A stretch of DNA of 64,000 nt from Acidimicrobiales bacterium (GCA_035526705.1 DATLBX010000150.1:3729-67728); one strand, 5' to 3'; shown: positions 7,586-56,793, numbered from the stretch's first letter. Notes: generated by a model not told the origin, from the sequence alone. Made by a program: numbers and translations.

Positions 7586-7626
7586 AACATCCCGCTCCGC
7601 GAGCCAAAGGGCTCAGGGTCGGGCTT

Positions 7627-8348: not shown

Positions 8349-8394
8349 CTACGCAGTGGAAACAGGTCGAACATGCGTTCTATCTTAAGAAGGG

Positions 8395-8694: not shown

Positions 8695-8697
8695 GGC

Positions 8698-9993: not shown

Positions 9994-10030
9994 TCCCTCT
10001 CAAACCGCTCGGTGCTGCTCTGACTCCATC

Positions 10031-26107: not shown

Positions 26108-26707
26108 TCACGCGTCCTCGGCGGCCAACTCCTTGAGCCTCGCCTTCGCTTTGCCCGAGGTGGCTTCCACCAGGCACGCGATGGCCCGCATATCTTCGGG
26201 GCGAATCGAGATCAAATAATCCGCTTCGTCCTGTCGCTCGAGCTGAATGAGCCCCAGGTAGCGCGCCAGCAGGTCACGCGCCGTGGGATCCAAACCTGAC
26301 AGCCGTCGCAGGTCCAAGGTGACCCGGGAATCCCCTGACCGATCCTCGGAGCGACGTTCTAGCTCGGTCACCTCGTCGGGCTCTCGAGTCTTCTCGGCCG
26401 GCATCTCCGGCGACTCCGGCAGGAGGTGATCCACGCTCACCCCATACAACTCGGCCAGTCTTTGGAGTCTGGTCACCGAAATCATGCGGTGACCGCGCTC
26501 GTACGCGCCCAGGACACTGATGCGGAATTCTTCTCCGGACATTCGAGCCACTGTGCGCAAGGAAAGCTTGCGTTGCTGACGGACCCAACGGAGCCGCTGG
26601 CCGAGCCGCTCGGCGAAGCTGCGCTCCGCCTCTGCGATCGCAGGATCGGCTACCCGGGTCTCCGGGTCGGCCACCCTGCCGTTTCCTAGCCCTGCGGGCT
26701 CCGGCAT
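26108..26707 (-). CDS. bldD: BldD-like XRE-HTH developmental regulator / c-di-GMP effector
   Basis: HTH region LGQRLRWVRQQRKLSLRTVA...GAYERGHRMISVTRLQRLAELYGVSVDHLLP parallels my recollection of Streptomyces BldD. The C-terminal domain has RQD-EADYLISI-RPED, the RXD-X8-RXXD signature (nt 26192-26236). Confidence 0.8.
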   Translation of the reverse strand: MPEPAGLGNGRVADPETRVADPAIAEAERSFAERLGQRLRWVRQQRKLSLRTVARMSGEEFRISVLGAYERGHRMISVTRLQRLAELYGVSVDHLLPESPEMPAEKTREPDEVTELERRSEDRSGDSRVTLDLRRLSGLDPTARDLLARYLGLIQLERQDEADYLISIRPEDMRAIACLVEATSGKAKARLKELAAEDA

Positions 26708-28839: not shown

Positions 28840-31231
28840 CTGGACCTTGAAGTTTACGGGTCAGGAGATCGGTGATCCGTGCCTCCGACCGCAGCGACGC
28901 CTCCTGGATCGACGCGATCGCCTCGGGCAGAGCCTCCAGGGCGAGAGCGAGGTCCTCCCGGATGCCGGTTGCGCCGGCCCGTTGCTCGCCGACGATCCAG
29001 GCGAGCTCCGCGATGAGGGTTTCGACTCGCTCGTGCCGCGTGCGGGACTCCTCGAGAACGGCGCCGAGTTCGGCAGAGATCCGGGGCGGGACGGTTTCCA
29101 TCAACTCACTCAGATGCGACGTGAGCTGGTCCCGCGTGGAGAGGAGGGCATCGGAGTGCGCCGAAGCCTGGGACTTCAGGGAGTCGCCGAGTGACCTGGA
29201 CTGCGCTTCGACCGCCCCGGTAAGCGCCTCCGAGGTCGAGTCGAGCGTTTCGACCAGCTCCTTCGAGGTTTGGCCGACTGTTTCGACCAGCTTCTTCGAG
29301 GTGAGGTCGACCGCTTCGACCAACTCCTTCGAGGCGAGGTCGACCGTTTCGACCAGTTGGCGCGAGGTGGACTCGAGGGTGCCCTCGAGCGCCTTGGAAG
29401 ACGACTCGACACTCCGGGACAACGTCGTGGAGCTCGACTCGATTGTCTCAGCGAGTTCCGCGGAACGAGACTCGAACGCTTCGGTGAGAGCCGTCGACCG
29501 GGATTCGAGCGCGTCACCGACAGCCGTCGCGTTCGCATCGAGGGCAGCGGCCATCACCTCGGCATGAGATGCCAGCGCCGCCTCGTGCGTCGAGGTCTGC
29601 ACTTCGATTTGGCCGGTGAGACGATCGAGATTCTCCGTCGCCGCCGACAGCACGGACTCCTGCGATCGGCGCTGCGCGTCGGTCGAGGACCGAACCCGCT
29701 CCAATTCCTCGGCGACTGAGTCGAGGCGAGCCACCACACCCTCGGCCTGGCCCGCCACCACTTCCGTCAGGTGGTGCGTGGTCTCGGCCAATGCCTCCTG
29801 GTGCGGCAACACGATGGACTCCATTCGCTCGCCGAGGCGCTGTTCCAATTCAGCGGTCAGAGCCAGCGCACCTTCCTGCTGGCCCGCGCGGAGTTCCCGG
29901 GCCACCACGTCGAACGCGTCACGCAGCTCGATCGCGGCCTGGGCCTGCGGTTCGATGGCCATGTGAACCTGAGCGCTGATTCGCTCCGCCGCCTCGTCGA
30001 ACGCGTCGCGGAGCTCGCGCGATACCTGGAGTTGCGGCTCGAGCGTGCGCTCGAACTCCTGGCCCAGCCGGTTGAGGTCACCCGCGAGCGCGGCGGCATC
30101 CTCCTGCCGGGCTGCGTGCAGGTCCTGCACGAGCTCTTCGATCGAGCCGCGCAACGCGGACGAGGCTTGGAGCTGCGGCTCCAGGACTGTCTCGACACGA
30201 GCTCCCAACCGCTCATCCAACCCGGCAGCGAGGGTGCCGGCCTGCTCCACCTGGAAGGTCCGCATTTCGTTCACCGCTCCGTCCAAAGCGGCCTTCAGCT
30301 CCGCGGCAGCCTCGTCTTGAGCCTCTCGGAGCTCCCGCATCATCGTGTTGAGGCGCTGAGCCTGCGCCGCCTGCGCCCTTTCGAAAGCGACGGTCACGGC
30401 TTCTTCGGCTACCTCGCTGAAGCCGGACACTGAAGCAGCCATTCGCTCAGCGGTCGCCGACAGCTCCGCGGTAGCCGATCGCTGCCGGTTCAGGCCCGCA
30501 TCGAGGGATCGACCCAAACCCGACGCGAGGTCCTGCATCGCCTCCGCCTGAACGTCGTGCGACCTCTGAACGGAATCGGAGATGACGGTGCCGATGCGGC
30601 CCGGCAGCTCGCTCGCCATCTCGTTCAGCCGCAGGGCCGAAAGCTTCTCGTCGATCATTTCGAGCAGGACCGAGTGCTGGCGAGCGACGTTCTCCGAAAG
30701 GCCGGCTCGCAGCTCCACCAGGACTTCGTCGAGACGGTCGAGGCTGTTCTGACGCGACAACTCGGAACGCTTGCCGCGCTCCACCAGCTCGCCCACGAGC
30801 TCGCGGACTTCGTGCAGTCCCTTGTCGATCGTCGGAAGCGCGTTCTCGAGCCCGTCGATGACCGCTGATGCGACTGCCGGGGGCAGGCGGCGGCTCAGCT
30901 CCGCGGGGTCGTAACCCGCAAGTCGATTCTCGACGGCTTGTACGAGGCGCGCGTCGTGCTCCGCCATCGCGCCGGTGATGTCGTCGCGCACGGCATCCAG
31001 ACCGAGCCTCACCGATTCCATCTGCGATCGGTAAGACGACTCCGCGACCTCGGTGACGGTCTTCGCAAGGGAGGCGCTGACTTGTTCGAGCCGGCTCAGC
31101 TGGTCGGGCAGGAGCTCCTGAGTGCGACTCTGCAGCTCTGCGACCACGGCGTCGACCGCGGTCCGAGCGAGATCGAGCATCTCGGCCGGCGTGATGTCGT
31201 AACGGCGGCGGGCGACCGGCACTCGTGCCAT
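28829..31231 (-). CDS. 800-aa Ala/Glu/Leu/Ser-rich coiled-coil protein with hendecad (11-residue) repeats
   Basis: No TM segment, no Cys or Trp-rich core, and continuous helical repeats such as LVETVDLASKE-LVEAVDLTSKK-LVETVGQTSKE-LVETLDSTSEA. The stop overlaps the hrcA start by 11 nt. Confidence 0.75.
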   Translation of the reverse strand: MARVPVARRRYDITPAEMLDLARTAVDAVVAELQSRTQELLPDQLSRLEQVSASLAKTVTEVAESSYRSQMESVRLGLDAVRDDITGAMAEHDARLVQAVENRLAGYDPAELSRRLPPAVASAVIDGLENALPTIDKGLHEVRELVGELVERGKRSELSRQNSLDRLDEVLVELRAGLSENVARQHSVLLEMIDEKLSALRLNEMASELPGRIGTVISDSVQRSHDVQAEAMQDLASGLGRSLDAGLNRQRSATAELSATAERMAASVSGFSEVAEEAVTVAFERAQAAQAQRLNTMMRELREAQDEAAAELKAALDGAVNEMRTFQVEQAGTLAAGLDERLGARVETVLEPQLQASSALRGSIEELVQDLHAARQEDAAALAGDLNRLGQEFERTLEPQLQVSRELRDAFDEAAERISAQVHMAIEPQAQAAIELRDAFDVVARELRAGQQEGALALTAELEQRLGERMESIVLPHQEALAETTHHLTEVVAGQAEGVVARLDSVAEELERVRSSTDAQRRSQESVLSAATENLDRLTGQIEVQTSTHEAALASHAEVMAAALDANATAVGDALESRSTALTEAFESRSAELAETIESSSTTLSRSVESSSKALEGTLESTSRQLVETVDLASKELVEAVDLTSKKLVETVGQTSKELVETLDSTSEALTGAVEAQSRSLGDSLKSQASAHSDALLSTRDQLTSHLSELMETVPPRISAELGAVLEESRTRHERVETLIAELAWIVGEQRAGATGIREDLALALEALPEAIASIQEASLRSEARITDLLTRKLQGPDAR
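29248..29379. repeat. Four tandem 33-bp units inside the coiled-coil gene
   Basis: TTTCGACCAGCTCCTTCGAGGT...-type units at 29248-29280, 29281-29313, 29314-29346 and 29347-29379. Each encodes one 11-residue repeat, with more degenerate copies on both sides. Confidence 0.85.
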
Positions 31232-31247: not shown

Positions 31248-32738
31248 GTGCGATCGGGGTATCCGCGACAGACTCAGCGGGCCATGGAAGACCCGCTCCT
31301 CAGCCCCAGGACAGTCGCCCGACTCGGAGGCCTTCTTTTCGTTATCGGTGCGGCCGCGATGGTGCCGCTGGCCGTCCTGAGCCCCGACTCGGTGGACCGC
31401 CGCGCCACGCTTGCGGGGGTCGCCATCGCTTCCCTGGCGACGGGCCTCGCGGCGATGGTCCTGCCCTGGGATCGCTGGCCTCGGTGGGCCACTCTGGTCC
31501 TTGCCCCCCTGGCAGGCACCGTCATCGCATTTGCGAACTCGCTGAGTCCCGACCCGTGGCTTTACGCCATATTCCTGCTGCTCGTATTCGGCTGGATCGG
31601 TGTCGCGCACCGCCCCGGAACCTCGGTGAGGTTGATCGTCATCGTGATGGCGGTTTATCTCCTGCCTGCGTTCCTCGACCGGGCCACGCGCGTCGAATCG
31701 CTTCGCGCCACCCTCGTGGTCGCCCCCGTTTGCTTGATCATCGGTGAGGGCCTCGCCCAGGTCGTCCGCCGGCTACGGGAGGCTGAGGCGCTCAATGTGG
31801 CGCGCCTTCGAGATCTGCAGGCGCTCGTCGACGCAACCATTCGGATGGCCCGCGTCAGCGAACCACGGCAGACCGCCAACCTCGTCGCCGAGCTCGCTGT
31901 CAACCTGCTCGGCGCATCCTCTTCGTTGGTCATGCTCTCCCCCTCCGAAGGCGGGATGCAGCCCGCCGGTTCGCACCGTTGGGAGCTGGGCGTCGAGGGC
32001 GCGCACGAACTCGAGGAGGGCGCCGACCGCGCCCTCCTCACGGGCGAAATCACCCGGCGGGCGGACGGCAGCCTGGCGTTCATTCCTTTGATCAGCACCG
32101 CCGGGCCTCAGGGTTTGATCATCCTGACCGGGGTGGCCGGGCATGAGCGACTGCTCGACACGTTCACGTCCGGCCTGGCCCGCACGTTCGCCACTCAGGC
32201 CACCGTCGCGTTCGAGCGTGTGCGGGCTACGCAATCACTGGTCGACGCTTCGTTCCGCGACCCGCTCACCGGCGTCGGCAACCGCCGACGGGCCGACACC
32301 GCTCTGGAGTCGGCAGCCACGGGCGATGCCGTTGCCATAGTCGATCTCGACAACTTCAAAGCGGTGAACGACACGCACGGGCACCAGGCCGGCGACCAGG
32401 TGCTCCAGAACCTGGCCCGTCTCCTGGCGGGCAGCGTTCGGGAGGTGGATGTCGTGGCGCGCTTCGGCGGTGAAGAGTTCCTGCTCATCCTCCGCGGCGT
32501 CGGCACGAAGGCCCTCGCCGCGATGGAACGGTTGGCGGAATGGTGGCGCACCAACGGACAGGCCACTACCTGGAGCGCGGGGATCGCGGTGAAGCGGGCC
32601 GAGGAGCCGCCGGCCGAAACTCTGGCCCGGGCGGACGCCGCGCTGTATCAGGCAAAAGCGGGCGGCCGCGACCTCGTAATCCTCAGCCCTGAACCGGAGC
32701 CGGAGCCGCAGAACGACCCGTCACTCGTCGAGGCGTAA
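31248..32738 (+). CDS. Membrane-anchored diguanylate cyclase (multi-TM, GAF-like linker, GGDEF)
   Basis: About 5-6 N-terminal TM helices. GGDEF domain [13 protein letters not shown]...[20 protein letters not shown]...[12 protein letters not shown], with an intact GGEEF A-site and an RxxD I-site (REVD) five residues upstream. Alternative start at ATG 31284. Confidence 0.88.
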
Positions 32739-34626: not shown

Positions 34627-36711
34627 CTACGCCAGTAACGCCGGGCCCGAAGCCTCTCTCTGCAGCAATACGCGGGTCAGGTCGTCGGCGGGCGTGGGAC
34701 GGCCGAGCCAGAAACCCTGGGCGACCTCACAGCCGAGTTTGGCGAGCTGGTCCCACACCGCCTGGTCCTCGACGCCTTCCGCCACGGTGCGCTTGCCCAG
34801 GTGGCGGGCCAGGTCGATGGTCGAGCGCACGATCGCCGCGTCGTTCGCGTCGACGCACATGGTCGTGACGAAGCTCTTGTCGATCTTCAGCTCGTCTACC
34901 GGCAGGTTCTTGAGGTAGCTCAGGGAGGAGTAGCCGGTACCGAAATCGTCGAGAGCGATCTCGACCCCCATGTTTCGCAGGATCTGCAGGACCCGCGACA
35001 CCCGCGTCGGATCGGCCATCACGGTGCCCTCGGTGATTTCGAGCTGGAGCGATGAGGCCGGCACTCCGGTCTCGTCGAGCAATCGGCGGACGTCGCGGGG
35101 AAAAGTGCCGTCGTGCAGGTTCCGCACCGAAAGGTTGACGGCCACTGTGAGGCTGAGCCCGAGGTCGTGCCACCGGCGGCACTGCTTCAATGCGCGCTCC
35201 AACACGTAAAGAGTCAGCGAGCGGGACAGCCCCGTGCGCTCCGCGAGCGGGATGAACGCGTCCGGGGCGAGCAGGCCCCGCAACGGGTGCGCCCACCGCA
35301 ACAGCACCTCGGCTCCGACGATCACACCGTCGGAGATGCGCGCCTTGGGTTGGTAATGCAGCACGCACTCCTCACCTTCGAGAGCGCGCCTCAACTCGCC
35401 GAGCATGGTGAGCTTCTCCGGGCTGTACGGATCCCGGCCCGCGTTGTAGATCTCGGCGCCCCGGCGCGATTCCTTCGCGAGGTACATAGCCACATCCGCT
35501 CGGCGCACCAGCGTGTCGACGTCCGTGCCGTGCTCCGGATAGAGGGCGATCCCCATCGAGGCTTCGATGTCGAGAGAAAGACCCGAGAGGGGGAAGGGCT
35601 GTTCCAGTCCTTCGAGGATCTGGCCGCCCCGTTCCAATGCGGCTGCCGCGTCGGGCACGCCATTCAGCAGGATGCCGAACTCGTCTCCGCCGAAGCGAGC
35701 CAGGAGATCCCCCTCGGCCAGTGTGCTGCTCAAGCGCGGTCCGATTTGTTCCAGCAGTTGGTCGCCGACCTGGTGACCGAGCGTGTCATTGACCTCCTTG
35801 AAGCGGTCGAGATCGATGAGCATCACTGCGAGGCCGCGACCACCCACGGCCGGCGCGGGCCCGTCGTCGCCGATCAGGATGCTCGCCGCCTCGTGAAACC
35901 ACGCTCGGTTGTTGAGCCCAGTCAGCCGGTCCGTGAAGGCCTGCCTGTCGCGCTCGCTGAGGGCGCGAGCCGCGAAATACACGGCGCCGACGGGAACGAG
36001 CAAAAGCGGCACCAGGAACAGGCTGTGGTCCGACGCGACAAGCAGAACTGGCGCGAGGATCACCATCATCAAGGTCGACGTGCCGTGCAGCACGAGGTCG
36101 GGCCCGACCAGCGACGTCAGAGGAAGGCCCTGGTGAAGAGCCAACGCTCCGGCAACGGCGAAGTGATTCACCGCGAAGATCACCAGTGCCGCCAACGCGA
36201 TGATCGGAAGGTCGCGCGGCGAGGCGAACATGCGCGTGTGGCCGTCAGGGTCGAGCAGGGAAAGTGCGCTGGCGCCCGCGCCGAGAGCCAACGCCGCCTG
36301 CAGGCCGTTGAACAGCCCGCGCCACAGGGGCTTGCGCTGAAGTAGGTCCGCCACCACCCCCGCGCCGGCCGCGACGGCGAGGGCCGGTCCGGGCCCGCCT
36401 GCCAGAAGGAGCGCGAAGACGAAGCTCAGCGAGACATTCAATTCGAACCCTCGAAGAAGCCGGATGGGCAGCAGTTCGGTCAGCAACGCCAGGACGGCGA
36501 AGAGCGCTACCCGCGCCGGATCCACTGGGCCGTCGGAGCTGGACGCGAGCCCGGCCGCGAGCATGATCGCTCCGCCCAGCATCACGACAGTGACGTAAGC
36601 GCGCAGAGCCAGCCGGTTGCGCGGTGGCGGGCTGGAGGCCGGGACATCCAGCAACGCGGGGAGCGGTCCGGAGACATGGGACCCTCTTCGCTCCGGTAAC
36701 AGGCGGTTCAT
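34627..36711 (-). CDS. Multi-TM sensor GGDEF-EAL protein
   Basis: About 8 N-terminal TM helices. GGDEF (DRLTGLNNRAWF...ARFGGDEFGILL, no RxxD I-site). EAL domain (LHYQPK...GAEVLLRW...LEITEG...DDFGTGYSSLSYL...KIDKSF...VAEGVED). Confidence 0.92.
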   Translation of the reverse strand: MNRLLPERRGSHVSGPLPALLDVPASSPPPRNRLALRAYVTVVMLGGAIMLAAGLASSSDGPVDPARVALFAVLALLTELLPIRLLRGFELNVSLSFVFALLLAGGPGPALAVAAGAGVVADLLQRKPLWRGLFNGLQAALALGAGASALSLLDPDGHTRMFASPRDLPIIALAALVIFAVNHFAVAGALALHQGLPLTSLVGPDLVLHGTSTLMMVILAPVLLVASDHSLFLVPLLLVPVGAVYFAARALSERDRQAFTDRLTGLNNRAWFHEAASILIGDDGPAPAVGGRGLAVMLIDLDRFKEVNDTLGHQVGDQLLEQIGPRLSSTLAEGDLLARFGGDEFGILLNGVPDAAAALERGGQILEGLEQPFPLSGLSLDIEASMGIALYPEHGTDVDTLVRRADVAMYLAKESRRGAEIYNAGRDPYSPEKLTMLGELRRALEGEECVLHYQPKARISDGVIVGAEVLLRWAHPLRGLLAPDAFIPLAERTGLSRSLTLYVLERALKQCRRWHDLGLSLTVAVNLSVRNLHDGTFPRDVRRLLDETGVPASSLQLEITEGTVMADPTRVSRVLQILRNMGVEIALDDFGTGYSSLSYLKNLPVDELKIDKSFVTTMCVDANDAAIVRSTIDLARHLGKRTVAEGVEDQAVWDQLAKLGCEVAQGFWLGRPTPADDLTRVLLQREASGPALLA

Positions 36712-41039: not shown

Positions 41040-41870
41040 TCACGCCGCCGCCAAGAGCGCGGCCATGGTGTCGACTACACGTCGAGTGCCCGCCACATCG
41101 TGCGTGCGGACGATGCGACAGCCCTCGGCGACTCCCACCGCCGTAGCTGCGGCCGAGGCCAGCCGTCGCTCGCCGACCTCCAGATCCAGCAGGCGGCCGA
41201 GAAACGTCTTGTTCGACGCGGAAAGCAGCAGAGGGAAGCCAACTGCCGCAAGCTCCGCAGAGCACTGAAGCAACACCAGCGACTGCTGCCATGTCTTGCC
41301 GAGGTCCAGCCCGGCATCGATCACGATCCGATCGCGCGGGATGCCCGCGGCGACTGCAAGGCGCGCCAGCTCGGTCAGGCGGTCGCGCACCACCGTGGTG
41401 ACGTCGTCGTACGCCGGGTTCGGGTCCGCGACCCGGGGCGCCAGGCGGATGTGCGTGGCGACGACGCCGGCGTCTGCACGCACCGCGACCGCCAAATAGT
41501 CCGGATCGGCGAACCCGGAGATGTCGTTTCCCAGCACCGCGCCCGCCGCGTACGCGGCAGCGGCCACCGATGCCCGCCATGTGTCGACCGAGACCGGGAG
41601 ATCGAAGCGCTGGGTCAGCGCTTCGACCCCGGGGACGACCCGCTCGAGCTCCTCCTCCTCCGTCACCTCCGGACCCGGTCCCGCCTTCACTCCACCGACG
41701 TCGAGGAGATCTGCGCCCGCGTCGACGTGCTGCGCCGCGAGGTCTACGAACCTGTCCATGGCAAAGAACGCGCCCGCGTCGAAGAACGAATCCGGCGTTC
41801 GGTTGAGAATGCCCATCACGAGCGCTCTATGGGTGAGGTCGTAGGACCGGTCGCCGAGTTGCAGCCTCAC
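41040..41870 (-). CDS. folP: Dihydropteroate synthase
   Basis: ALVMGILNRTPDSFFDAG, DLLDVGGVK and the C-terminal RTHDV motif. Confidence 0.88.
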   Translation of the reverse strand: MRLQLGDRSYDLTHRALVMGILNRTPDSFFDAGAFFAMDRFVDLAAQHVDAGADLLDVGGVKAGPGPEVTEEEELERVVPGVEALTQRFDLPVSVDTWRASVAAAAYAAGAVLGNDISGFADPDYLAVAVRADAGVVATHIRLAPRVADPNPAYDDVTTVVRDRLTELARLAVAAGIPRDRIVIDAGLDLGKTWQQSLVLLQCSAELAAVGFPLLLSASNKTFLGRLLDLEVGERRLASAAATAVGVAEGCRIVRTHDVAGTRRVVDTMAALLAAA

Positions 41871-43221
41871 GCCTCGAAACTAAGCGGCGCGAGACGGCCG
41901 CCATCGCGGCCGCCCCCGCCCCGAGGAGCGCGGCTCGCGGCCCCAGCGCCGGCAGGTCGAGCCCGGATCCCCAGCGCGCCACGCCGTCTATCCAAGTGAG
42001 CATGAGGCCGGTGGGCCGATGGAGCAGGGTCGCCAGCCTCCCTCCGAGAACCCCCGCAGGAATGCCGGCGACCATGCCCCACATCATCAACGGCCCCGCG
42101 ACCGGCACCGCGAGGAGATTCGCAGGGACCGATGCGAGCGGGATGGATCCGAACACCACCAACAAGGTCGGGGCGACCCCCACCTGCGCACCAACGGTGG
42201 CGGACAGCACGTCGACGAGCGGCCGCGGCCCCCGGAGCCGTTCGGCAACCCACGGCGCCACCACGGCGAGACCCACCGACGCGCTGACAGACAGCAGGAA
42301 CGACACCGATCCCACGAGCAAGGGGTCGACCAGGAGAATCACCACGACGGCCCCGGCCACCAGTTGCAGCCGATCCGCGGGGCGAGCGAAGGTCCGCGCC
42401 GAAACCCCGAGGCCCGCCATCACAATCGCTCTCACGACCGACGGCTCCCAGCGGACGACGGTGCCGAAGAACACCAACACGACCGCGGTGGCCGCGAGCC
42501 GAGCTCCGTTGGCGCCGCGCGCCACGAGCGGCGCGGCCAGCAGCAGCGCGAACGCGACGTTCTGGCCCGACACAACCAACAAATGACTGAGCCCGGCGTC
42601 CCGAAAGCGCTCGACCGTCTCGTCGTTCTGGCCTCGGTCGTCGCCCAACACAAAGCCGGCGAAGAGCCCACGTTCCCGCTCGGGCATCGCGGTCGCGCCA
42701 CGTTCGATGGTGCGCCGCAACCCGTTGGCGAGCCGGGACAAGGGAGCCCCCGTCCACGGCGGTCCCGCCGCTTCCAGCTGCAGCCTCGCGACGATGTGTC
42801 GCCGCCGTAGATGCGGGGCGATCCGACCGCGGAGCGGCGAGGGCGTGCCTCGGACCTCGAGCACCTCACCCGCCAGGGCACGATGGAGCGAGCCCGCAGC
42901 CGCGCCGCGGGCCCACGTGTCGTAATGGCGGCCGCCGACTCGCAACTCGGCGTGGACGGCGCCGTGCCGGTCGTCGGGATCGGTCACCACGGTCGCAACG
43001 CCCGCCACCTCGGCCGGAACGGCCGCTTGGAGCCCATCCCAGGATCGGGCCGCCAGGGAGGAAGCGGCCACGGCCGCCACGGCGCACCAGAGCCAAGGGT
43101 GGCGAAGCCGCGAAGCGACCAGGGCGAGCGCGGCGGCGACGGAGAGCGGCACCGGGTGCGCCACCCAGGCGCCGAGCGCGGTGAGGAGTGCCAGCGCGGG
43201 GAGAAACCTGCGTTGACTCAA
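41827..43221 (-). CDS. comEC: ComEC/Rec2 family DNA internalisation channel (no metallo-beta-lactamase domain)
   Basis: Polytopic membrane protein with LFAGFVLGDDRGQ...AGLSHLLVVSGQNVAF. TTG start overlaps the comEA stop (TTGA). Confidence 0.8.
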   Translation of the reverse strand: MSQRRFLPALALLTALGAWVAHPVPLSVAAALALVASRLRHPWLWCAVAAVAASSLAARSWDGLQAAVPAEVAGVATVVTDPDDRHGAVHAELRVGGRHYDTWARGAAAGSLHRALAGEVLEVRGTPSPLRGRIAPHLRRRHIVARLQLEAAGPPWTGAPLSRLANGLRRTIERGATAMPERERGLFAGFVLGDDRGQNDETVERFRDAGLSHLLVVSGQNVAFALLLAAPLVARGANGARLAATAVVLVFFGTVVRWEPSVVRAIVMAGLGVSARTFARPADRLQLVAGAVVVILLVDPLLVGSVSFLLSVSASVGLAVVAPWVAERLRGPRPLVDVLSATVGAQVGVAPTLLVVFGSIPLASVPANLLAVPVAGPLMMWGMVAGIPAGVLGGRLATLLHRPTGLMLTWIDGVARWGSGLDLPALGPRAALLGAGAAAMAAVSRRLVSRREAATRRPVLRPHP

Positions 43222-43862
43222 ACCTTCACCAAAGGCCGCAGCTGCTCGAGCTTGGCTTCCCCGATGCCGCGGACTTCAAGAAGCTCGGTCACGGAGCGGA
43301 ACCGGCCGCGGGTCTCGCGGTGACGGATGATCGCCTCCGCTGTAGCGGGGCCGACTCCCGGCAGTTTGTCGAGTTCCTCCGCAGTGGCGGTGTTCAGATC
43401 GACCTTCGTCGAAGCGCCTGGAATGGCGTTCGAACCCGACGACATCGTCGCGGTCTCCCCCCGGCGCGGCACCAGAATGCGCTCTCCGTCCGCCAGCGGC
43501 GCCGCGAGGTTCAGCTGGTCTAGATCGGCATCAGAGGTTGCTCCGCCTGCCGCGCTCAGGAGATCAGAGACTCTGGAGCCACCGGGCATGCGGTAAACGC
43601 CGGGAGTCGTCACCGCGCCGGCGGCGTGGACCGTGACCTCCTGATCGCCCGTCACCGGCGCGGACGATTCCGCCGCCGGGGCCGCCCTCGGGAGGGTCAG
43701 TTCGGCGGGCAGCGATGAGGGCCGAAGGGCAAACCAGCCGAGCCCGCTGGCGAGAACCAGCGCCACGAGTAAGGCGAAGCCCGGCCGTTCGAGCGGTAAG
43801 CCTTCGGCAAACACGGAGAGTCGTTCGCGCCAGCCCGGGCGCGGTGAAGCGGGCCTTTCCAA
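43218..43862 (-). CDS. comEA: ComEA family DNA-binding protein
   Basis: N-terminal TM segment. C-terminal tandem helix-hairpin-helix DLNTATAEELDKLPGVGPATAEAII...LLEVRGIGEAKLEQL. Confidence 0.85.
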   Translation of the reverse strand: MERPASPRPGWRERLSVFAEGLPLERPGFALLVALVLASGLGWFALRPSSLPAELTLPRAAPAAESSAPVTGDQEVTVHAAGAVTTPGVYRMPGGSRVSDLLSAAGGATSDADLDQLNLAAPLADGERILVPRRGETATMSSGSNAIPGASTKVDLNTATAEELDKLPGVGPATAEAIIRHRETRGRFRSVTELLEVRGIGEAKLEQLRPLVKV

Positions 43863-49675: not shown

Positions 49676-50785
49676 TTATTTGGGGAGCCCCAGAACCCTT
49701 TCGCCGATGATGTTGCGTTGGACCTCGGATGTTCCGCCACCGATGGTCAAGGCCGTCGCGAAGAGAAAGCCGTAATGCCAGAGGGGGTCGTCGCTACCCA
49801 CTGGACCGGGACCGGCCAGCATCCCCGCCGCACCGGCCAGGTCCTTCGCCAACCCCATGAGCCGCTGGCCGTGCTCGTCGGCCAATGCCTTCGCCACTGA
49901 GGACTCGGCCCCGGCAGGCTTGCCTGCCACGCGCGCGCCGAGGGAGCGGAGCCGTAGGGCGCGGAGTACTTCGCCCTCGACCCACACCTTGGTCAGACGG
50001 TCGCGCACCACAAGGTCCGAACAACCTCCCGCCCCACGCACCGCGTCGAGGAGGTCATCGTGGGTCGGACCTCTCCCCCACAGTGCGCCCTCGCCTGAGA
50101 GCGAGACGCGCTCCTGTGCGAGCGTGACCTTCGCCAGAGCCCAGCCCGCCCCCTCCTCGCCGACCAGGTTGGCGGCGGGGAGGCGCACGTCGGTGAGAAA
50201 CACTTCGTTGAAGGTGTGCACACCGGTCATTTCCACGAGAGGCCGCACCTCCACGCCGGGCGCATCCATCGGACAGATGAAGTACGAGATGCCGGCGCGG
50301 CCCATGTTCTCCGCGGCGGTACGGGCCAGCAGGATGCCGAAACGCGAGTTGTGTGCCAGTGAAGTCCACACCTTCTGGCCGTTGATCACGTATTCGTCGC
50401 CGTCGCGACGAGCGATCGTGCGCAGGGCCGCGAGATCGGACCCCGCCTCCGGCTCGCTGAAGAGTTGGCACCACAGCTCCTCACCGGAGAGCATGGGGAA
50501 CAGATACCGCTCCTGTTGCTCGGGCGTGCCCGAGTGCAGGAGGGTCGGGCCTGCCCATCCCGTGCCAATCGGGTTTGCCGGCCGCCGGATCCCCGCCGCC
50601 TTGAGCTCCTCGTCGATGATCAGCTGGAGAATCGGGTCTGCCTCCAGACCCCACGGCCGTGGCCAGTGAGGGGCCACGTAACCGGCTTCGGCCAACTCTC
50701 GGCCCGACGGACGAGGGTGATCGGCGAGCCAGCTCCGGACCGATTCCCTACGCGGGTCGTCCTCTGGGGCAACAACGATGCGCAC
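49676..50785 (-). CDS. Acyl-CoA dehydrogenase family protein
   Basis: ACAD fold motifs (PHWPRPWG..., GQKVWTSLAH, C-terminal GGTSEVQRNIIGERVLGLP). Start uncertain: GTG 50785 is chosen to avoid overlap with the divergent fadD-like gene; the track start is 50854. Confidence 0.8.
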   Translation of the reverse strand: MRIVVAPEDDPRRESVRSWLADHPRPSGRELAEAGYVAPHWPRPWGLEADPILQLIIDEELKAAGIRRPANPIGTGWAGPTLLHSGTPEQQERYLFPMLSGEELWCQLFSEPEAGSDLAALRTIARRDGDEYVINGQKVWTSLAHNSRFGILLARTAAENMGRAGISYFICPMDAPGVEVRPLVEMTGVHTFNEVFLTDVRLPAANLVGEEGAGWALAKVTLAQERVSLSGEGALWGRGPTHDDLLDAVRGAGGCSDLVVRDRLTKVWVEGEVLRALRLRSLGARVAGKPAGAESSVAKALADEHGQRLMGLAKDLAGAAGMLAGPGPVGSDDPLWHYGFLFATALTIGGGTSEVQRNIIGERVLGLPK

Positions 50786-50807
50786 GGCAGGGCAAGCTAT
50801 CGGGCCA

Positions 50808-52427
50808 ATGAGCGGTTGGAACTGGGCTGATATCTGGGAGACCGTCGCTGACACGCGCCCGGAGGCGCCGGCCCAGGTTCAAGGCAAGCGACGCGTCACC
50901 TGGGCCGAGCTGGACCGAAGGGCCGACGGGGTGGCCCAGGCGCTGCTCGATTTGGAGCCCAGCCGTCAGGACAAGGTCGCCCAGTACCTCTACAACTGCC
51001 CCGAATACATGGAGTCGGTGTTCGGGACCGTCAAGGCGGGCCTGGTGCCGGTCAACACCAACTACCGCTACGAGTTGGATGAGCTGGTCTACCTCTGGGA
51101 CAACGCGGACGCGATCGCGGTGGTGTTCCATCACTCCTTCGGGGAGAAAGTCGAGGCGATAAGAGACCGTCTCCCGAAGGTCCGGGGGTGGTTCCGTGTG
51201 ACGGACGACGGTGCCGACGGCGATTGCCCCGAGTGGGCCATCCCCTACGAGGAAGCCGCCACCTCCGCGGCAGCCCGGACCAGCCCGCCCTGGCAGCGCG
51301 ACGGCGACGACCTCTTCCTCTTGTACACCGGAGGAACCACCGGGATGCCGAAGGGCGTGATGTGGCGCCAGGACGACCTGTTTTCGATACTGAACGGCTC
51401 GAGCCTCGTCCGTCACCCAACCGACGCCGGGATCGAAGGGATCGGCGGGAACCTCAGGGAACTCGGGTCCGGAGCCATAGGCCTCCCCGCTTGCCCCCTC
51501 ATGCACGGCACCGGAGCACTCACCGCCCTGTCGGTGATGAACGGAGGGGGTTGCGTCGTCACGCTGGAGAGTCGCAGCCTCGACACTGTCGAGTTGCTCG
51601 ATGCCATCACCACCGAGCGGGTGCAGCACCTGGCCATCGTCGGGGATGCTTTCGCCAAGCCGTTGCTTGCGACCCTGGACGCGAATCCCGGACGCTGGGA
51701 TATCTCGAGCATCGTTTTGATCGTCTCGTCCGGCGTGATGTGGAGCGAGGAGGTCAAGGCCGGTCTCCTACGGCACCACCCCGGCATGTTGCTCGCCGAC
51801 GCGTTCGCTTCGTCCGAAGCCCTGGGCATGGGGACTTCGGTGTCCAGCGCTGCGGGCACCGCCACCACGGCGAAGTTCACCCTCGGTGACGAAGCACGGG
51901 TGATCCGTCCGGATGGAACCTCGGTAGAGCCTGGTTCGAACGAGATCGGCATGGTGGCGGTGAAGGGCCGTACGCCCATCGGCTACTACAAGGATCCGGA
52001 GAAGTCGGCCGTAACCTTCCCGATCCTCGACGGCCAACGTTGGTCCGTCCCGGGTGACCACGCGATGGTGGAGGCCGACGGGACCCTCGTGCTCCTAGGC
52101 CGAGGGTCGGTGTGCATCAATACCGGGGGAGAGAAGGTTTTCCCCGAAGAAGTCGAGGTGGCTGTGAAGTCCCACCCCGCGGTGTCGGACGCGCTGGCCG
52201 TTGGCGTGCCCGACGAGCGGTTCGGAGAGGCCATCTGCGCCGTCGTCGAACACGCCGCGGGCGCAACCGTCGCTCCCGACGAGTTGATCGCGCATGTCAA
52301 GGGTCAACTGGCCGCCTATAAGGCGCCGAGGCACATCGTCGTCGTGCCCTCGATAGAGCGTGCGGCCAACGGCAAGGCGGACTACAAGCGGTGGAAGGCC
52401 GAAGCCGCGGAGCTCTTGGGGCGGTGA
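50808..52427 (+). CDS. Acyl-CoA synthetase (AMP-forming, FadD-like)
   Basis: AMP-binding motif LLYTGGTTGMPKGVMW, later GDHAMVEADGTLVLLGR and C-terminal ANGKADY. Start at ATG 50808. Confidence 0.88.
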   Translation: MSGWNWADIWETVADTRPEAPAQVQGKRRVTWAELDRRADGVAQALLDLEPSRQDKVAQYLYNCPEYMESVFGTVKAGLVPVNTNYRYELDELVYLWDNADAIAVVFHHSFGEKVEAIRDRLPKVRGWFRVTDDGADGDCPEWAIPYEEAATSAAARTSPPWQRDGDDLFLLYTGGTTGMPKGVMWRQDDLFSILNGSSLVRHPTDAGIEGIGGNLRELGSGAIGLPACPLMHGTGALTALSVMNGGGCVVTLESRSLDTVELLDAITTERVQHLAIVGDAFAKPLLATLDANPGRWDISSIVLIVSSGVMWSEEVKAGLLRHHPGMLLADAFASSEALGMGTSVSSAAGTATTAKFTLGDEARVIRPDGTSVEPGSNEIGMVAVKGRTPIGYYKDPEKSAVTFPILDGQRWSVPGDHAMVEADGTLVLLGRGSVCINTGGEKVFPEEVEVAVKSHPAVSDALAVGVPDERFGEAICAVVEHAAGATVAPDELIAHVKGQLAAYKAPRHIVVVPSIERAANGKADYKRWKAEAAELLGR

Positions 52428-53923
52428 TCGATCCCGAGGACGGGGAGCAGGGCGGCGGTGATCTTTTCGTCGACCTGACTTCCTACCCCGTGGATCTCGA
52501 GACGGTGAAGCTGCTTTCGCCTCGGTTGGCGCGTCGCTGCCAAGCCATCCCGCTCCGCCGGGAAGGGGGTCGGATCGTCGTCGCCCTCGCGAACCCAACC
52601 GATCTCTTCGTCATCGACGACCTTCGGGCCGCGCTGCGCTCGCCCGTCAAGGTCCTAGCCACTACCGCGGCGTCGCTCGACTGGGCCCTGGGTGAGTGGC
52701 TTCCTCTCGGCGAGGAAGCCGACACGCTGGTGAAGCTGGCCGAAGCCGAAACCGCTGGTAGTGGACGACACCCTGGGGACTCGGACGTCCAGACGGTCAC
52801 AGACGCGCCGCTGGTGCGTCTGGTCGATCTGGTGTTGACCGACGCGATGCGCGCCGGCGCATCGGACATACACCTCGAACCCAGTCGGGGCGAATTTCTC
52901 GTGCGTCATCGCGTCGACGGTGTGCTTCGCGACGCGCGCAGCTTTCCCCGCACGGTGCAGGCTGCCCTGATATCGCGTATCAAGCTCATGGCAGGTCTCG
53001 ACATCGCGGAGCGCCGGCTCCCTCAGGACGGCCGGATCCGTAAGGCTCTGGATGGCAAGGACCTCGATATGCGTGTCGCGATCCTTCCGACGGTGCACGG
53101 CGAGCAGGTGATCATCCGGCTGTTGGATACCGATCGCGCCGTCGTCAGCCTCGAAGACGTCGGTTTCATGCCAGACGTATTGCCCAAGTACGAGCTGTTG
53201 GCGCGGCGTCCTCACGGCGCCCTATTGGTGACAGGGCCCACTGGATCGGGCAAGTCGACGACGTTGTATGCCACCTTGGCAGCGGTCAACGATCGGTCCA
53301 AGAAGGTCATCACCGTCGAGGACCCGGTCGAATATGAAACGGTCGGCATCTCGCAGGTCCAGGTGCACACGCGGTCCGGGCTTACCTTCGCCAGAGCCCT
53401 CCGGTCGATCCTGCGCTGCGACCCCGACGTGGTTCTCGTCGGTGAGATCCGGGACCGTGAGACCGCGCTGATCGCGCTGGAGGCCGCGCTGACGGGGCAC
53501 CTCGTGCTGTCCACGTTGCACAGCAACGACGCAATCAGTACGCCGCTGCGGTTGATCGAACTCGGAGTCGAGCCCTACCTGGTCGCGTCCGGTCTCGAGG
53601 GCGTCGTGGGCCAACGTCTCGTGCGGGTGCTTTGCGAGAAGTGCAAGCAGCCCGCCCCGAAGAAGGACCCGAAGGTGGGCAAGCACTTCAAGGCCGTCGG
53701 TTGCCGCGAATGTGGCATGTCGGGCTACCGCGGTCGCCGGGGAATCCAGGAGCTCATGGTCGTGACGCCCACGATCGAGCACCTCATCGCCTCGGCATCG
53801 TCGCCGGACGAGATTCAAATAGTGGCGCTGGAGGAGGGCATGGTGCCGCTGCGCGACGCCGGCATGGACCTGGTGAAGAAGGGGCTGACGACCGTGGAAG
53901 AAGTGTTGAGGGTCACCGTATGA
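52424..53923 (+). CDS. Type II/IV secretion-system ATPase, GspE/PilB family (orphan)
   Basis: T2SSE_N-like N-terminus (RIVVALANPTDLFVIDDL). Walker A GPTGSGKST, Asp box, Walker B VVLVGEIRD, His box GHLVLSTLHSN and tetra-Cys CEKC...CRECG. GTG 52424 forms a GTGA overlap with the fadD-like stop. Confidence 0.88.
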   Translation: MIDPEDGEQGGGDLFVDLTSYPVDLETVKLLSPRLARRCQAIPLRREGGRIVVALANPTDLFVIDDLRAALRSPVKVLATTAASLDWALGEWLPLGEEADTLVKLAEAETAGSGRHPGDSDVQTVTDAPLVRLVDLVLTDAMRAGASDIHLEPSRGEFLVRHRVDGVLRDARSFPRTVQAALISRIKLMAGLDIAERRLPQDGRIRKALDGKDLDMRVAILPTVHGEQVIIRLLDTDRAVVSLEDVGFMPDVLPKYELLARRPHGALLVTGPTGSGKSTTLYATLAAVNDRSKKVITVEDPVEYETVGISQVQVHTRSGLTFARALRSILRCDPDVVLVGEIRDRETALIALEAALTGHLVLSTLHSNDAISTPLRLIELGVEPYLVASGLEGVVGQRLVRVLCEKCKQPAPKKDPKVGKHFKAVGCRECGMSGYRGRRGIQELMVVTPTIEHLIASASSPDEIQIVALEEGMVPLRDAGMDLVKKGLTTVEEVLRVTV

Positions 53924-54513
53924 GCAAGAGCTCGCCGGACACCAGTTGGATCGCCGACGTGATGGCCAAGCTGGAGCACGACCTGCGCAACCCGCTCACG
54001 GCGGTCATGGGGTTCGCCGACCTGTTGGGCATGAGCGATCTCGACGAAGCCCAGCGCCAGCACCTGAACCGCATCCATCAGGCCGCCGAACAGCTGTTGC
54101 AGGTGCTGGAGACCATGGAGGAGCGGGCCGTAGCCCCACAGCGCACCGTCGTGTATCTGGAAGATGACGCCGGGAATGTCGGCCTGATCGGCGGAATACT
54201 CGTCCACCGGCCGGGCGTGCGGCTGATTTCCGCGGCCGATGCTGCCACCGGTCTGAGCATCGTGCGAAAGGAGATGCCCGACCTGGTGCTCCTGGACCTC
54301 GGCCTGCCCGATCGCAACGGCGCGGACGTTCTCACTGATCTCAAGGCCGACCCCACGACCGCGGACATCCCGGTAGTCGTGATCAGCGCTTCCGCCGATC
54401 GTCGCGAGGACGTGCTGGCCGCGGGAGCCGAGGCCTACCTGAGCAAGCCGCTCGAAATCGTCGAGTTCCTGGAAATAGTCGATCGGTTCGCAGCGGCGGA
54501 CTCGACCGGGTGA
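53920..54513 (+). CDS. DHp (HisKA)-receiver protein lacking an ATPase (CA) domain
   Basis: H-box KLEHDLRNPLTAVMGFADLL. A complete receiver follows directly (YLEDD...LVLLDLGLPD...VVISAS...YLSKP). ATGA overlap with the upstream stop. Only 197 aa, so there is no room for a HATPase_c domain. Confidence 0.8.
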   Translation: MSKSSPDTSWIADVMAKLEHDLRNPLTAVMGFADLLGMSDLDEAQRQHLNRIHQAAEQLLQVLETMEERAVAPQRTVVYLEDDAGNVGLIGGILVHRPGVRLISAADAATGLSIVRKEMPDLVLLDLGLPDRNGADVLTDLKADPTTADIPVVVISASADRREDVLAAGAEAYLSKPLEIVEFLEIVDRFAAADSTG

Positions 54514-56060
54514 ACCGGTGGCGGCGTAAGCAGGACCTACGCAGCAGGCTCCAGCGCGCCTTCAACCTGATCCTGCTCGGCGTCGCATTGATCGGGGTGC
54601 TCGGCGTGGGCAGCCGCGTCGTAGGCCTTCAAGCGGTCAACGAGCTGATCTACGAGACCCAGCCGCTCCTCGAGAGCAACGCCGAGTTTCTTCAGGTGCT
54701 CACCGATGCGCAGTCGGCGCAACGCGGCTACCGCCTCACCCATGATGGGATTTATCTCGAGCGGTATAACCGCGCCATCCGCAGCGTGCCTGAACTCGCG
54801 TCGGGCCTGCGGGCGCGTTCCGCGGAGCTCCCGGAGATCCGAGCGCTCTTGTCGGAGGAAGTGAAGCGCGCCACCAAGTGGATGGAAGAATTCTCGCTTC
54901 CAACCATGGAGCGGGTCCGGGCGGACGTGACTTTCCAGCCGGACAGGGCTGCGTCCGCGCACGGAAACGACCTTTTCGACGCGGTTCGAGACGCGAACCA
55001 AAAGGCCGAGACCGCCATGGAGGTCCGCGCAGACCGGGTCGAGGCGGAGGTTCGCCGTACCACTATCAACGCCGGCCTGGGCTCGGTCGTGTTCCTTTCG
55101 CTTGGGATCCTCGCTGCAGCGGTGATGTCTCGGCGGACGACAGCCTTCGTCGCGAATCCCCTCGAAGATCTCCGGCACACCATCGCGAGGCTGGCTGAGG
55201 GCGACTTCGCGGCGCGGGCCACCGTCGAAGGACCCACGGAGATCCAGTCGGTGGCCGAAGCGATCAACGAGATGGCGGAGTCGCGGGAGCGCTTCCACGA
55301 ACTGCAGCAGGAGACAATGCGACAGCTGGAGTCGCTCGACCAGGCGCGAGCCGACTTCATTTCGTCTGTCTCGCACGAGCTGCGCACTCCCCTGACGAGC
55401 GTGACCGGCTACGCCGAGATGCTTCTCGACGGCGACGCGGGCCCCCTCGGCAGCGAGCAGGAAAAGATGATCCGCACCATCGATCGCAACGCTCGGCGTC
55501 TGCTGGATCTGGTGGAGGACATCCTCACCGTCGCCCGGATGGACGTGGGGGTGCAGCGGCTTTCTCCAGAGCCTGTGAACGTCGCCGATCTAATCGAGTC
55601 CGCCGTCGATGCGGTACGGCCGTCCCTGGTGGCCCGGGCTCTCTCGCTTCGGGTCGACGTTCCGCCTGTAGTCGGGGCAATCCGGGCGGACCGCGGTCAA
55701 CTCGAGCGGGTCTTGCTGAACCTCCTGTCGAATGCCGTCAAGTTCACCCCGAGGGGTGGCCGCATCACCGTGGCCGCGGAAAAAAGAGCCGGAACGCTCT
55801 CGCTCTCCGTAAGCGACACCGGCATGGGAATCCCGATCGCCGAGCAGCCGAGGATGTTCCAGCGCTTCTTCCGCTCCTCGACATCGCGCGACGAGGTCAT
55901 TCCTGGCACCGGCCTCGGGCTTTCGATCGTCAAGTCCATCGTGGAGGGGCATGGAGGCTCGATCGAGTTCGACTCCACGCCCGGCCGAGGGACCACTTTC
56001 CGCGTCGAACTGCCTGCGGATGGTCCGCCGAGCCCCGCAGGCCAGACTGGACCGGCATGA
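54510..56060 (+). CDS. Sensor histidine kinase: CHASE3-TM-HAMP-HisKA-HATPase_c
   Basis: CHASE3 hallmark LTDAQSAQRGYRLTHDGIYLERYN. Second TM plus HAMP. H-box FISSVSHELRTPLTSV, N-box LLNLLSNAVKFTPRGG, G1 DTGMGI, G2 GTGLGLSIV. GTGA overlap with the upstream stop. Confidence 0.9.
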   Translation: MNRWRRKQDLRSRLQRAFNLILLGVALIGVLGVGSRVVGLQAVNELIYETQPLLESNAEFLQVLTDAQSAQRGYRLTHDGIYLERYNRAIRSVPELASGLRARSAELPEIRALLSEEVKRATKWMEEFSLPTMERVRADVTFQPDRAASAHGNDLFDAVRDANQKAETAMEVRADRVEAEVRRTTINAGLGSVVFLSLGILAAAVMSRRTTAFVANPLEDLRHTIARLAEGDFAARATVEGPTEIQSVAEAINEMAESRERFHELQQETMRQLESLDQARADFISSVSHELRTPLTSVTGYAEMLLDGDAGPLGSEQEKMIRTIDRNARRLLDLVEDILTVARMDVGVQRLSPEPVNVADLIESAVDAVRPSLVARALSLRVDVPPVVGAIRADRGQLERVLLNLLSNAVKFTPRGGRITVAAEKRAGTLSLSVSDTGMGIPIAEQPRMFQRFFRSSTSRDEVIPGTGLGLSIVKSIVEGHGGSIEFDSTPGRGTTFRVELPADGPPSPAGQTGPA

Positions 56061-56428
56061 ACAACGCCCGCGTTGTGCTGATGATCGAGGACGACGTGGA
56101 CATCCGAGAGCTGTTGGCAACACGGGTACGCCGTCTGGGTGTCGAAGTCGTTACGGCGACCACGGGGGCGACGGGCATACAGACCGCCCGTGAAATCAAG
56201 CCCGACCTACTGGTGGTGGATATCGGGTTGCCGGACATGGACGGCTGGGCGGTCATCGAGCAGCTGGCGGACGACGATCGGACGCGCGACATCCCAGTGG
56301 TCGTCGCGTCCATCGTGGATCCCGTGGAGGGTGTCTCCCAACGCGTCGAGGCCCATCTGGTCAAGCCGATCAAGAAAGGCGCGTTGGAGGATGCCGTGAT
56401 GGAAGCGATCCAGAAGGGCGACTCATGA
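56057..56428 (+). CDS. Single-domain (CheY-like) response regulator
   Basis: MIEDD...LLVVDIGLPDMDG...VVVAS...LVKPI. ATGA overlap with the upstream stop. Confidence 0.88.
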   Translation: MNNARVVLMIEDDVDIRELLATRVRRLGVEVVTATTGATGIQTAREIKPDLLVVDIGLPDMDGWAVIEQLADDDRTRDIPVVVASIVDPVEGVSQRVEAHLVKPIKKGALEDAVMEAIQKGDS

Positions 56429-56793
56429 AAATCGTCGTCGTCGAAGACGACCCGGTAGTCCGAGAGCTGATCGAGTTCAAGCTGTCCTCGGCAGGACACG
56501 AAGTGCTATTGGAAGCGGATGGAGAGGCTGGACTCAACACCGTCAAGACGGCGCGGCCCGACCTCGTCATCCTCGACTGGATGATGCCGAAGCTCACGGG
56601 CCTGGAGGTCTGCGAAGCGATCAGGGCGGACGCAGAGATATCCGACATGTCGGTTCTGCTGCTCACGGCTCGAGCACAGGAGAGCGACGTCGAGAAGGGG
56701 TTCGCGGCGGGCGTGAACGATTACCTGCTCAAGCCCTTCAGCCCGCGCGAACTGCTTTCGCGCGTAGAGGCGCTTGCCGCCAAGAAGAAGTAG
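56425..56793 (+). CDS. Single-domain (CheY-like) response regulator
   Basis: VVVEDD...LVILDWMMPKLTG...LLLTA...YLLKPF. ATGA overlap with the upstream stop. Confidence 0.88.
   Translation: MKIVVVEDDPVVRELIEFKLSSAGHEVLLEADGEAGLNTVKTARPDLVILDWMMPKLTGLEVCEAIRADAEISDMSVLLLTARAQESDVEKGFAAGVNDYLLKPFSPRELLSRVEALAAKKK

Follow-up and report, generated by a model that had tools for sequence, protein, structure and literature searches.

In a 64,000-nucleotide stretch of DNA from an Acidimicrobiales bacterium (GCA_035526705.1, DATLBX010000150.1:3729-67728; the whole stretch is called the window below), we find a gene for a PilB/GspE-type hexameric ATPase that overlaps, end to start, with the genes of a two-component module. 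The module consists of a compact protein in which a dimerisation and histidine phosphotransfer (DHp) domain is fused to a receiver (the DHp-receiver protein), a membrane histidine kinase with a CHASE3 sensor domain, and two stand-alone receivers, RR1 and RR2. The genes form an operon that is specific to one uncultured clade of Acidimicrobiales (Actinomycetota) and has been passed on vertically, and their make-up suggests that the signalling proteins control the motor directly.

Architecture of the cluster

All genes of the cluster lie on the plus strand. The gene for the ATPase paralogue (52424..53923, 499 aa; Pfam and NCBIfam scans) is followed by that for the DHp-receiver protein (53920..54513, 197 aa), which matches Pfam HisKA and Response_reg only and lacks a catalytic ATP-binding domain. 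Next come the kinase gene (54510..56060, 516 aa), with the order of a first transmembrane segment (TM1), CHASE3, a second segment (TM2), HAMP, HisKA and HATPase_c, and the genes for RR1 (56057..56428, 123 aa) and RR2 (56425..56793, 122 aa), each matching Pfam Response_reg only. These results bear out the domain calls for all five proteins in an earlier note on this DNA, which had also described five genes joined by 4-nt overlaps of start and stop codons. All five overlaps are there, with every frame intact (GTGA at 52424, ATGA at 53920, GTGA at 54510, ATGA at 56057 and ATGA at 56425), but the gene count needs amending, since five overlaps link six genes. The GTGA at 52424 ties the ATPase start to the stop codon of an upstream acyl-CoA-synthetase/FadD-like gene (50778..52427, +; Pfam AMP-binding and AMP-binding_C), hereafter the AMP-binding gene. 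Alignments of its product with homologues start at residue 11, and its true start is probably near 50808. For exactly this ATPase protein, the public gene call has the same start.

In order to set these junctions against their background, we counted overlaps among the Pfam-validated genes of the window. A 4-nt overlap is present at 5/5 cluster junctions and at 2/23 other same-strand neighbour pairs, and a further two of those 23 pairs overlap by 1 nt. The run of overlaps is thus not a background property of the genome. A scan of the sequence for promoters and terminators gave no more sites than did shuffled sequence. We also considered a defence system and rejected it, because the PADLOC scan gave only weak matches at the level of P-loops or receivers.

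A PilB-type ATPase without its c-di-GMP-binding module

The ATPase matches the Pfam T2SSE model (PF00437) over residues 126-496 with 426.5 bits, against a cut-off of 24.9, and the Pfam MshEN model over residues 15-94. Its closest solved structures are those of Geobacter PilB (5zfr and 5tsg; E values of about 1e-122 to 2e-122), with GspE behind and PilT far behind. In an alignment with orthologues and canonical PilB proteins, the Walker A motif (G271-T280), the Asp box (E299-E303), the Walker B motif (D333-D344) and the His box (T357-H366) are invariant, as are the four cysteines of the zinc site (C404, C407, C427 and C430, in the pattern CxxC...CxxC), so the catalytic boxes and tetra-Cys site noted previously hold up. 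Judged from its sequence, the protein is a paralogue of the PilB (extension) type with intact catalytic motifs. It does not reach the NCBIfam equivalog cut-offs for PilB (TIGR02538, 503.3 vs 675.65 bits) or GspE (TIGR02533, 543.2 vs 630.25 bits), nor that of the ComGA model (NF041000, 244.3 vs 300 bits), which it matches over the ATPase core only.

A search of 5.8 billion proteins showed that the orthologue group is tiny, with five clusters that are 82-95% identical to the ATPase and three that are 62-65% identical. The next matches, at only about 50% identity, are hundreds of canonical PilB proteins (about 558 aa); most carry no taxon name, and the named ones come from Acidimicrobiales/Acidimicrobiia metagenome-assembled genomes. 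We fetched the neighbourhoods of three relatives outside the orphan group. Two of these (P0010 and P0053) lie inside full pilus loci adjoining aroE, yceG, ruvX and alaS. The third, P0009, is a further orphan PilB-like gene (L084 10001-11689, 562 aa, 53% identical to the ATPase), flanked by the genes of an S8 peptidase and of an MFS transporter and near neither pilus nor two-component genes.

The difference from canonical PilB is greatest at the N terminus. Residue 15 of the ATPase aligns to residue 78/85 of Geobacter PilB, and alignment with orthologues shows that the N-terminal 60-80 or so residues of canonical PilB are missing. The missing region is MshEN_N, the module that binds cyclic di-GMP (c-di-GMP). 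This module comprises 53 residues with two motifs of 24 residues each, RLGxx(L/V/I)(L/V/I)xxG(L/V/I)(L/V/I)xxxxLxxxLxxQ (Wang et al., PMC5013675). Canonical Acidimicrobiia PilB proteins have sequences such as PLGALLIQEGLLTEAQLDAALAEQ in this region, which fits a relaxed form of the 24-residue motif, whereas neither the strict nor the relaxed motif occurs in the ATPase or its five orthologues. The frame in front of the ATPase start extends for no more than 34 codons, which leaves no room there for the 53-residue module. The check for an MshEN-type site that the earlier note had proposed thus returned a match to the C-terminal alpha/beta subdomain only, with the c-di-GMP site deleted. What the protein keeps is an N1-like domain (MshEN_C), N2 and, at the C terminus, the catalytic domain that contains the tetracysteine site. 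A second change, specific to the same clade, shortens the stretch between the two CxxC pairs (at about protein residues 408-420), which lacks about 20 residues that the canonical PilB of Acidimicrobiales has.

Canonical loci in the Acidimicrobiia gave us the queries with which to ask whether the ATPase has pilus partners nearby. We took PatA_N, PilB, a second T2SSE ATPase, PilC, pilin, PilD, PilM and PilO-like proteins from two such loci (L085 and L086) and compared them with the window by tblastn, and the ATPase was the sole match. PilC, pilin, PilD, PilM, PilO and a second ATPase were not found in the 64 kb, in agreement with the orphan status assigned to the gene before. A six-frame scan of the window found no prepilin motif, and Pfam scans of its larger open reading frames found no pilus or secretion partner genes. 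In the canonical loci themselves (L085 8876-15319 and L086 8870-14660), pilB directly follows a PatA_N (PATAN) gene, and between the genes of PilB and PilC there is one for another MshEN-T2SSE ATPase.

The DHp-receiver protein defines a very small family

The DHp-receiver protein matches Pfam HisKA and Response_reg and has no HATPase_c domain. Its AlphaFold model (predicted local distance difference test score, 85) predicts two long helices, residues 9-37 and 43-71, followed after three residues by a canonical receiver. A fold search with this model returned receivers only and no solved structure of the whole architecture; the receiver domain is closest to DivK. In an alignment of 16 orthologues, reaching down to 49% identity, residues H20, E81, D82, D83, D126, S156 and K176 are invariant, and His20 stands in the H-box HDLRNPL. 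The HPt domain (PF01627) was not found by Pfam in the 197 residues, and therefore a second histidine carrier would have to be of the DHp type, like Spo0B or ChpT. The DHp domain is a genuine HisKA in which the H-D-x-x-N box is intact. This box serves the phosphatase activity of HisKA proteins, and a phosphatase role for the DHp-receiver is therefore equally possible.

The family comprises about 35 clusters at 90% identity, all of 183-200 aa and all with HisKA and Response_reg, beyond which matches fall sharply to generic receivers. A filter-free hidden Markov model (HMM) search of 1.84 billion representatives gave three family members and then long hybrid kinases. Other kinase-less combinations of HisKA and receiver domains are rare but do exist, for example PAS-HisKA-REC-REC and REC-HisKA-REC. 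We found no described member of the DHp-receiver family in the literature.

The sensor kinase and the stand-alone receivers

In the kinase, the CHASE3, HAMP, HisKA (with its conserved histidine) and HATPase_c domains all score above the Pfam cut-offs. Hydrophobic segments at about residues 17-40 and 186-207 flank CHASE3, which places the sensor outside the cytoplasm. All three receivers conserve the acidic pocket, the phospho-acceptor aspartate, the Ser/Thr and the lysine across orthologues, as had been reported for the window sequence. In RR1, the conserved residues are the acidic pocket, D55, S85 and K103. The spacing from Ser/Thr to Lys is 18 residues in RR1 compared with 22 in RR2, and this shortening, which leaves an unusually short alpha4 region, is conserved; it points to a truncated alpha4 helix on the face that receivers usually employ for output. 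RR2 conserves D51, T81 and K103 and resembles an OmpR/PhoB-type receiver without the DNA-binding domain, its best NCBIfam matches being the receivers of PhoB, RpaB and MtrA.

The phospho-acceptors for a His-Asp-His-Asp relay are thus all present and conserved, namely the kinase H-box, His20 and Asp126 of the DHp-receiver, D55 of RR1 and D51 of RR2. Pfam detects no output domain in any of the three receivers, and their output must therefore be protein-protein contact. No CheA, CheW or methyl-accepting chemotaxis protein (MCP) domains were found by Pfam in the cluster or the larger open reading frames of the window. Neither RR1 nor RR2 contains a PATAN domain, and tblastn of the window with PatA_N proteins gave chance-level matches only (E = 0.07-0.2).

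The cluster is conserved within one clade

To assess whether the adjacency is kept in relatives, as the earlier note had asked, we compared ten loci, namely the window and L081, L082, L083, L087, L088, L089, L090, L091 and L170, of which L090 stops inside the DHp-receiver gene. Wherever sequence is available, the ATPase gene lies directly upstream of the DHp-receiver gene in all ten, followed by the kinase gene and the two receiver genes; at contig edges only a C-terminal fragment of the ATPase is present, still directly upstream of the DHp-receiver. As far as the contigs reach, the shared order is an acyl-CoA dehydrogenase gene (opposite strand), the AMP-binding gene, the ATPase, the DHp-receiver, the CHASE3 kinase, RR1, RR2, and then ligase and GH77 genes (opposite strand). 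A kinase orthologue was found in every related locus. Most junctions are kept as 4-nt or 1-nt overlaps at identities down to 62% for the ATPase and 50% for the DHp-receiver, and the overlap of the AMP-binding gene with the ATPase is kept in L081, L082, L083 and L170. The exception is the junction between DHp-receiver and kinase, which is called with a gap of 65-83 nt in L083, L088 and L089; this may reflect the choice of start codon.

Against L170, whose ATPase is 90% identical, the ratios of nonsynonymous to synonymous substitution (dN/dS) are 0.058 for the ATPase, 0.068 for the AMP-binding gene, 0.089 for RR1, 0.115 for RR2, 0.118 for the DHp-receiver and 0.209 for the kinase, values that are approximate because synonymous divergence exceeds 1. 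All six genes are under purifying selection.

The ATPase and DHp-receiver families have the same narrow distribution, and no non-signalling partner other than the ATPase accompanies the DHp-receivers. Scanning a genome collection with the ATPase returned only generic PilB genes of other phyla, at no more than 47% identity and none with the neighbours of the cluster. A metagenome scan with the DHp-receiver alignment gave two orthologous loci (L090 and L091) among 80, the rest being generic receivers.

Some loci carry additional features. In L081 (14319-14687, -), L087 (3957-4325, -), L088 (3023-3412, -) and L089 (3260-3649, -), the space between the RR2 and ligase genes is taken up by a third stand-alone receiver gene, which runs on the opposite strand; it is absent from the window, L170, L082, L083 and L091. 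In L082, the acyl-CoA dehydrogenase, AMP-binding and kinase genes are each in pieces (7236-10004 and 12072-13611); these are most likely assembly frameshifts and not real pseudogenes.

The surrounding window

Pfam scans of the larger open reading frames show that the window is an ordinary chromosomal region. It contains rpoD, dnaG, ppdK, a class II tRNA synthetase gene, recO, uppS, a CNNM/CorC-type transporter gene, ybeY, phoH, a gene for a BldD-like regulator, hrcA, a GGDEF gene, lepA, a GGDEF-EAL gene, holA, folP, comEC, comEA, and genes for a thioredoxin, NMO, VanW, an epimerase, a FAD oxidoreductase and an acyl-CoA dehydrogenase, after which the cluster follows. Beyond the cluster lie, in convergent orientation, genes for an ATP-dependent DNA ligase and a GH77 glucanotransferase; the gap between RR2 and the ligase is 8 bp. 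The LepA protein of the window has its best named relatives in Acidimicrobiales metagenome-assembled genomes (78-81% identity) and in an 'Actinobacteria bacterium' (91%), which assigns the DNA to an uncultured lineage of Acidimicrobiales. Three genes of the window are related to c-di-GMP, encoding the BldD-like regulator (HTH_3 and BldD-like_C, 26108-26707, -), the GGDEF protein (31248-32738, +) and the GGDEF-EAL protein (34627-36711, -).

ComEC (41827-43221, -; 464 aa as listed) has only the Pfam Competence domain. Its reading frame as listed overlaps that of folP by 44 nt, and its start is uncertain for this reason. ComEA (43218-43862; Pfam) lies on the strand opposite to the cluster. A 399-aa reading frame (23076-24275, +) has only sub-threshold matches to P-loop proteins of the MinD/ParA type, and the gene after it (24344-26080, +) encodes a partial M23 peptidase match with three CWB2 cell-wall-binding repeats. 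Beside hrcA, an 800-aa reading frame (28829-31231, -) has only a sub-threshold apolipoprotein-like (coiled-coil) match.

A candidate signal-to-motor module and its alternatives

Through the overlaps, translation of the ATPase is coupled to that of a branched two-component module, which comprises the membrane CHASE3 kinase, the kinase-less DHp-receiver and the two output-less receivers, and we propose the following mechanism. An external cue would trigger autophosphorylation of the CHASE3 kinase, which would lead to phosphorylation of the receivers. The DHp-receiver could act as an intermediate phosphotransferase, passing the phosphoryl group from Asp126 to His20 and on to the aspartate of a terminal receiver and thereby combining Spo0F and Spo0B in one protein, or it could instead serve as a phosphatase or sink under the control of its receiver. 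Once phosphorylated, one of the single-domain receivers, or both, would then bind the ATPase and alter either its activity or the way in which it docks to a type IV pilus platform, whose genes would lie elsewhere in the genome. In this way, phosphorylation would take the place of c-di-GMP in controlling the ATPase. Taken as a whole, the model of a CHASE3 kinase signalling through output-less receivers that bind and modulate the ATPase has, in our estimate, a probability of roughly 45%.

The idea of a dedicated signal-to-motor module, put forward in the earlier note, gains from the conserved adjacency and from the precedent of receivers that act on PilB, and loses from the restriction to a single clade and from the coupling of the acyl-CoA-synthetase-like gene. 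That gene looks unrelated and yet is joined by the same type of overlap, and short overlaps link unrelated genes elsewhere in the window, for example those of the epimerase and the FAD oxidoreductase. All instances fall within one narrow Acidimicrobiales clade in which the whole neighbourhood is syntenic; the flanking housekeeping genes are equally syntenic and better conserved in sequence (74-80% vs 44-69%). The conservation of the cluster therefore amounts to a single evolutionary observation, with all copies derived from one ancestor, and not to independent recurrence. The receivers here have no PATAN domain, whereas in Synechocystis it is PATAN, and not the receiver, that contacts PilB1. 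The outright deletion of the c-di-GMP module of the ATPase also counts among the weakening points, although the loss of its own input module would fit replacement by another input. Gene content, motifs, overlaps, conservation, purifying selection and restricted distribution are seen in the sequences, whereas the phosphotransfer route, the contact between receivers and ATPase, and the role in pili are inferred.

A rather unlikely alternative is that the genes are co-expressed and nothing more. The two-component module would then be a signalling node of its own, with receivers that act on targets encoded elsewhere (such as other kinases, as DivK does, or c-di-GMP enzymes) and an ATPase that is merely on the same transcript. 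In favour of this, a gene as unrelated in appearance as the acyl-CoA-synthetase-like one is coupled likewise, and the arrangement is in keeping with the similarity of the DHp-receiver's receiver domain to DivK, a regulator that acts on kinases, with the GGDEF, GGDEF-EAL and BldD-like genes in the same window, and with the third, opposite-strand receiver of some relatives, which suggests a wider network. It accounts less well for the shared narrow distribution of the ATPase and DHp-receiver families, which are adjacent in every recovered locus, and for an ATPase whose lost c-di-GMP input fits a replacement input. We consider it very unlikely that the juxtaposition has no functional link at all, i.e., that one insertion in an ancestor brought the ATPase and a two-component module together and the arrangement was then inherited. 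The single clade and single genomic context, with flanks that are as syntenic and more conserved, speak for it; against it, most junctions have stayed 4-nt or 1-nt overlaps at protein identities of about 50-65%, no gene has been lost or inserted on the cluster strand across lineages, and every gene is under purifying selection.

Other readings concern what the ATPase drives. Recruitment for a function outside pili, such as that of a hexameric motor which works on a different substrate and is switched by signals through a relay devoted to it, seems to us quite unlikely. No pilus genes lie within 64 kb, the ATPase scores below the equivalog cut-offs for both PilB (503 vs 676) and GspE (543 vs 630), its N-terminal truncation and the deletion of about 20 residues between the CxxC pairs are clade-specific, and L084 contains a further PilB-like orphan that has no pilus genes around it. 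Nevertheless, the N1-like docking domain and all extension-ATPase motifs are kept, canonical pilus loci that could supply a platform are common in the Acidimicrobiia, and the neighbourhood points to no alternative substrate. Somewhat more doubtful still is the specific version in which the truncated PilB-like ATPase is not a pilus motor but the output of a phosphorelay with a Spo0F/Spo0B-like DHp-receiver, switched by a phospho-receiver and acting on a non-pilus substrate in a lineage that possibly has no platform. The link to DNA uptake that had been raised in view of ComEA and ComEC finds no support, and we regard a ComGA-like competence ATPase as highly improbable. ComEC (41827-43221) and ComEA (43218-43862) are in the window and the ATPase has a partial match to the ComGA model, but with a score of 244, below the cut-off of 300 and confined to the ATPase core, as against 503-543 for the PilB and GspE models. 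In addition, the two com genes are about 8.5 kb away on the other strand, with seven genes of mixed orientation in between, they sit in a widespread holA-comEC-comEA housekeeping arrangement, and L083 and L091 have the cluster but not ComEA/ComEC at that position.

A search of the literature on PilB with CHASE3 and on type IV pili in the Acidimicrobiia found no published description of this gene combination, in line with the view that it is undescribed. All part types are known, as is the regulation of PilB by receivers. What is new is, first, the combination, in which a PilB paralogue that has lost MshEN_N shares a fixed operon with a CHASE3 kinase, a pair of bare receivers and a small DHp-receiver devoid of a kinase domain, and second, the family to which this DHp-receiver belongs. 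If the receivers do control the ATPase, the locus would be a natural minimal case of phosphorylation replacing c-di-GMP as the input to a PilB-type motor. Its partners are all encoded side by side and would be suited to reconstitution in vitro, and the DHp-receiver could reveal whether a HisKA domain can transfer phosphoryl groups as Spo0B does or can act by itself as a phosphatase. Given uncultured organisms and so small a family, the impact would lie in mechanism and not in breadth.

Comparison with known systems

The ATPase belongs to the same fold family as Geobacter PilB (5zfr/5tsg) and the canonical Acidimicrobiales PilB of about 558 aa, with which it shares the motif set and the N1-like and N2 domains. 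It is about 50% identical to the canonical Acidimicrobiales protein, but has no MshEN tandem motif, a CxxC loop shorter by about 20 residues and scores below the equivalog cut-offs, and its gene, unlike the PilB genes of L085 and L086, does not lie beside those of PilC, pilin, PilD and PilM. The likeness to MshE and other MshEN-type ATPases lies in the Pfam MshEN match of residues 15-94, which covers the C-terminal alpha/beta subdomain; the 53-residue c-di-GMP-binding module of those proteins is absent.

In the Spo0F-Spo0B system of Bacillus and with ChpT of Caulobacter, a receiver and a kinase-inactive four-helix-bundle histidine carrier stand between the sensor kinase and the terminal receivers. 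The DHp-receiver would differ from Spo0F-Spo0B in that both parts are fused in one protein of 197 aa. Spo0B and ChpT each keep a degenerate CA-like domain and have no receiver fused to them.

For stand-alone receivers that act on a PilB-type ATPase, as the earlier note had supposed, experimental precedent exists in the PATAN regulators of PilB1 and in the EmvR-PilB pair. In Synechocystis, PATAN regulators bind PilB1 and PilC through the PATAN domain (bioRxiv 10.1101/2021.06.11.447907). These PATAN-CheY proteins (PixG/PixE type) resemble the proposed module as phosphorylation-controlled regulators in contact with an extension ATPase; there, however, PATAN makes the contact and the input is a CheA-type chemosensory system, whereas the locus described here has no PATAN, CheA, CheW or MCP gene. 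In Xanthomonas oryzae, EmvR, a regulator with a single domain that acts downstream of the kinase ColS, binds to PilB and represses the ATPase (PMC11973254). As in the proposed module, a stand-alone receiver below a membrane kinase there acts directly on a PilB ATPase, in a branched layout of one kinase and two regulators. The Xanthomonas regulator, however, is encoded by an orphan gene, and the PilB that it binds is the canonical ATPase of the pilus, whereas here the receivers, the kinase, a truncated PilB paralogue and a kinase-less DHp-receiver are brought together in one operon.

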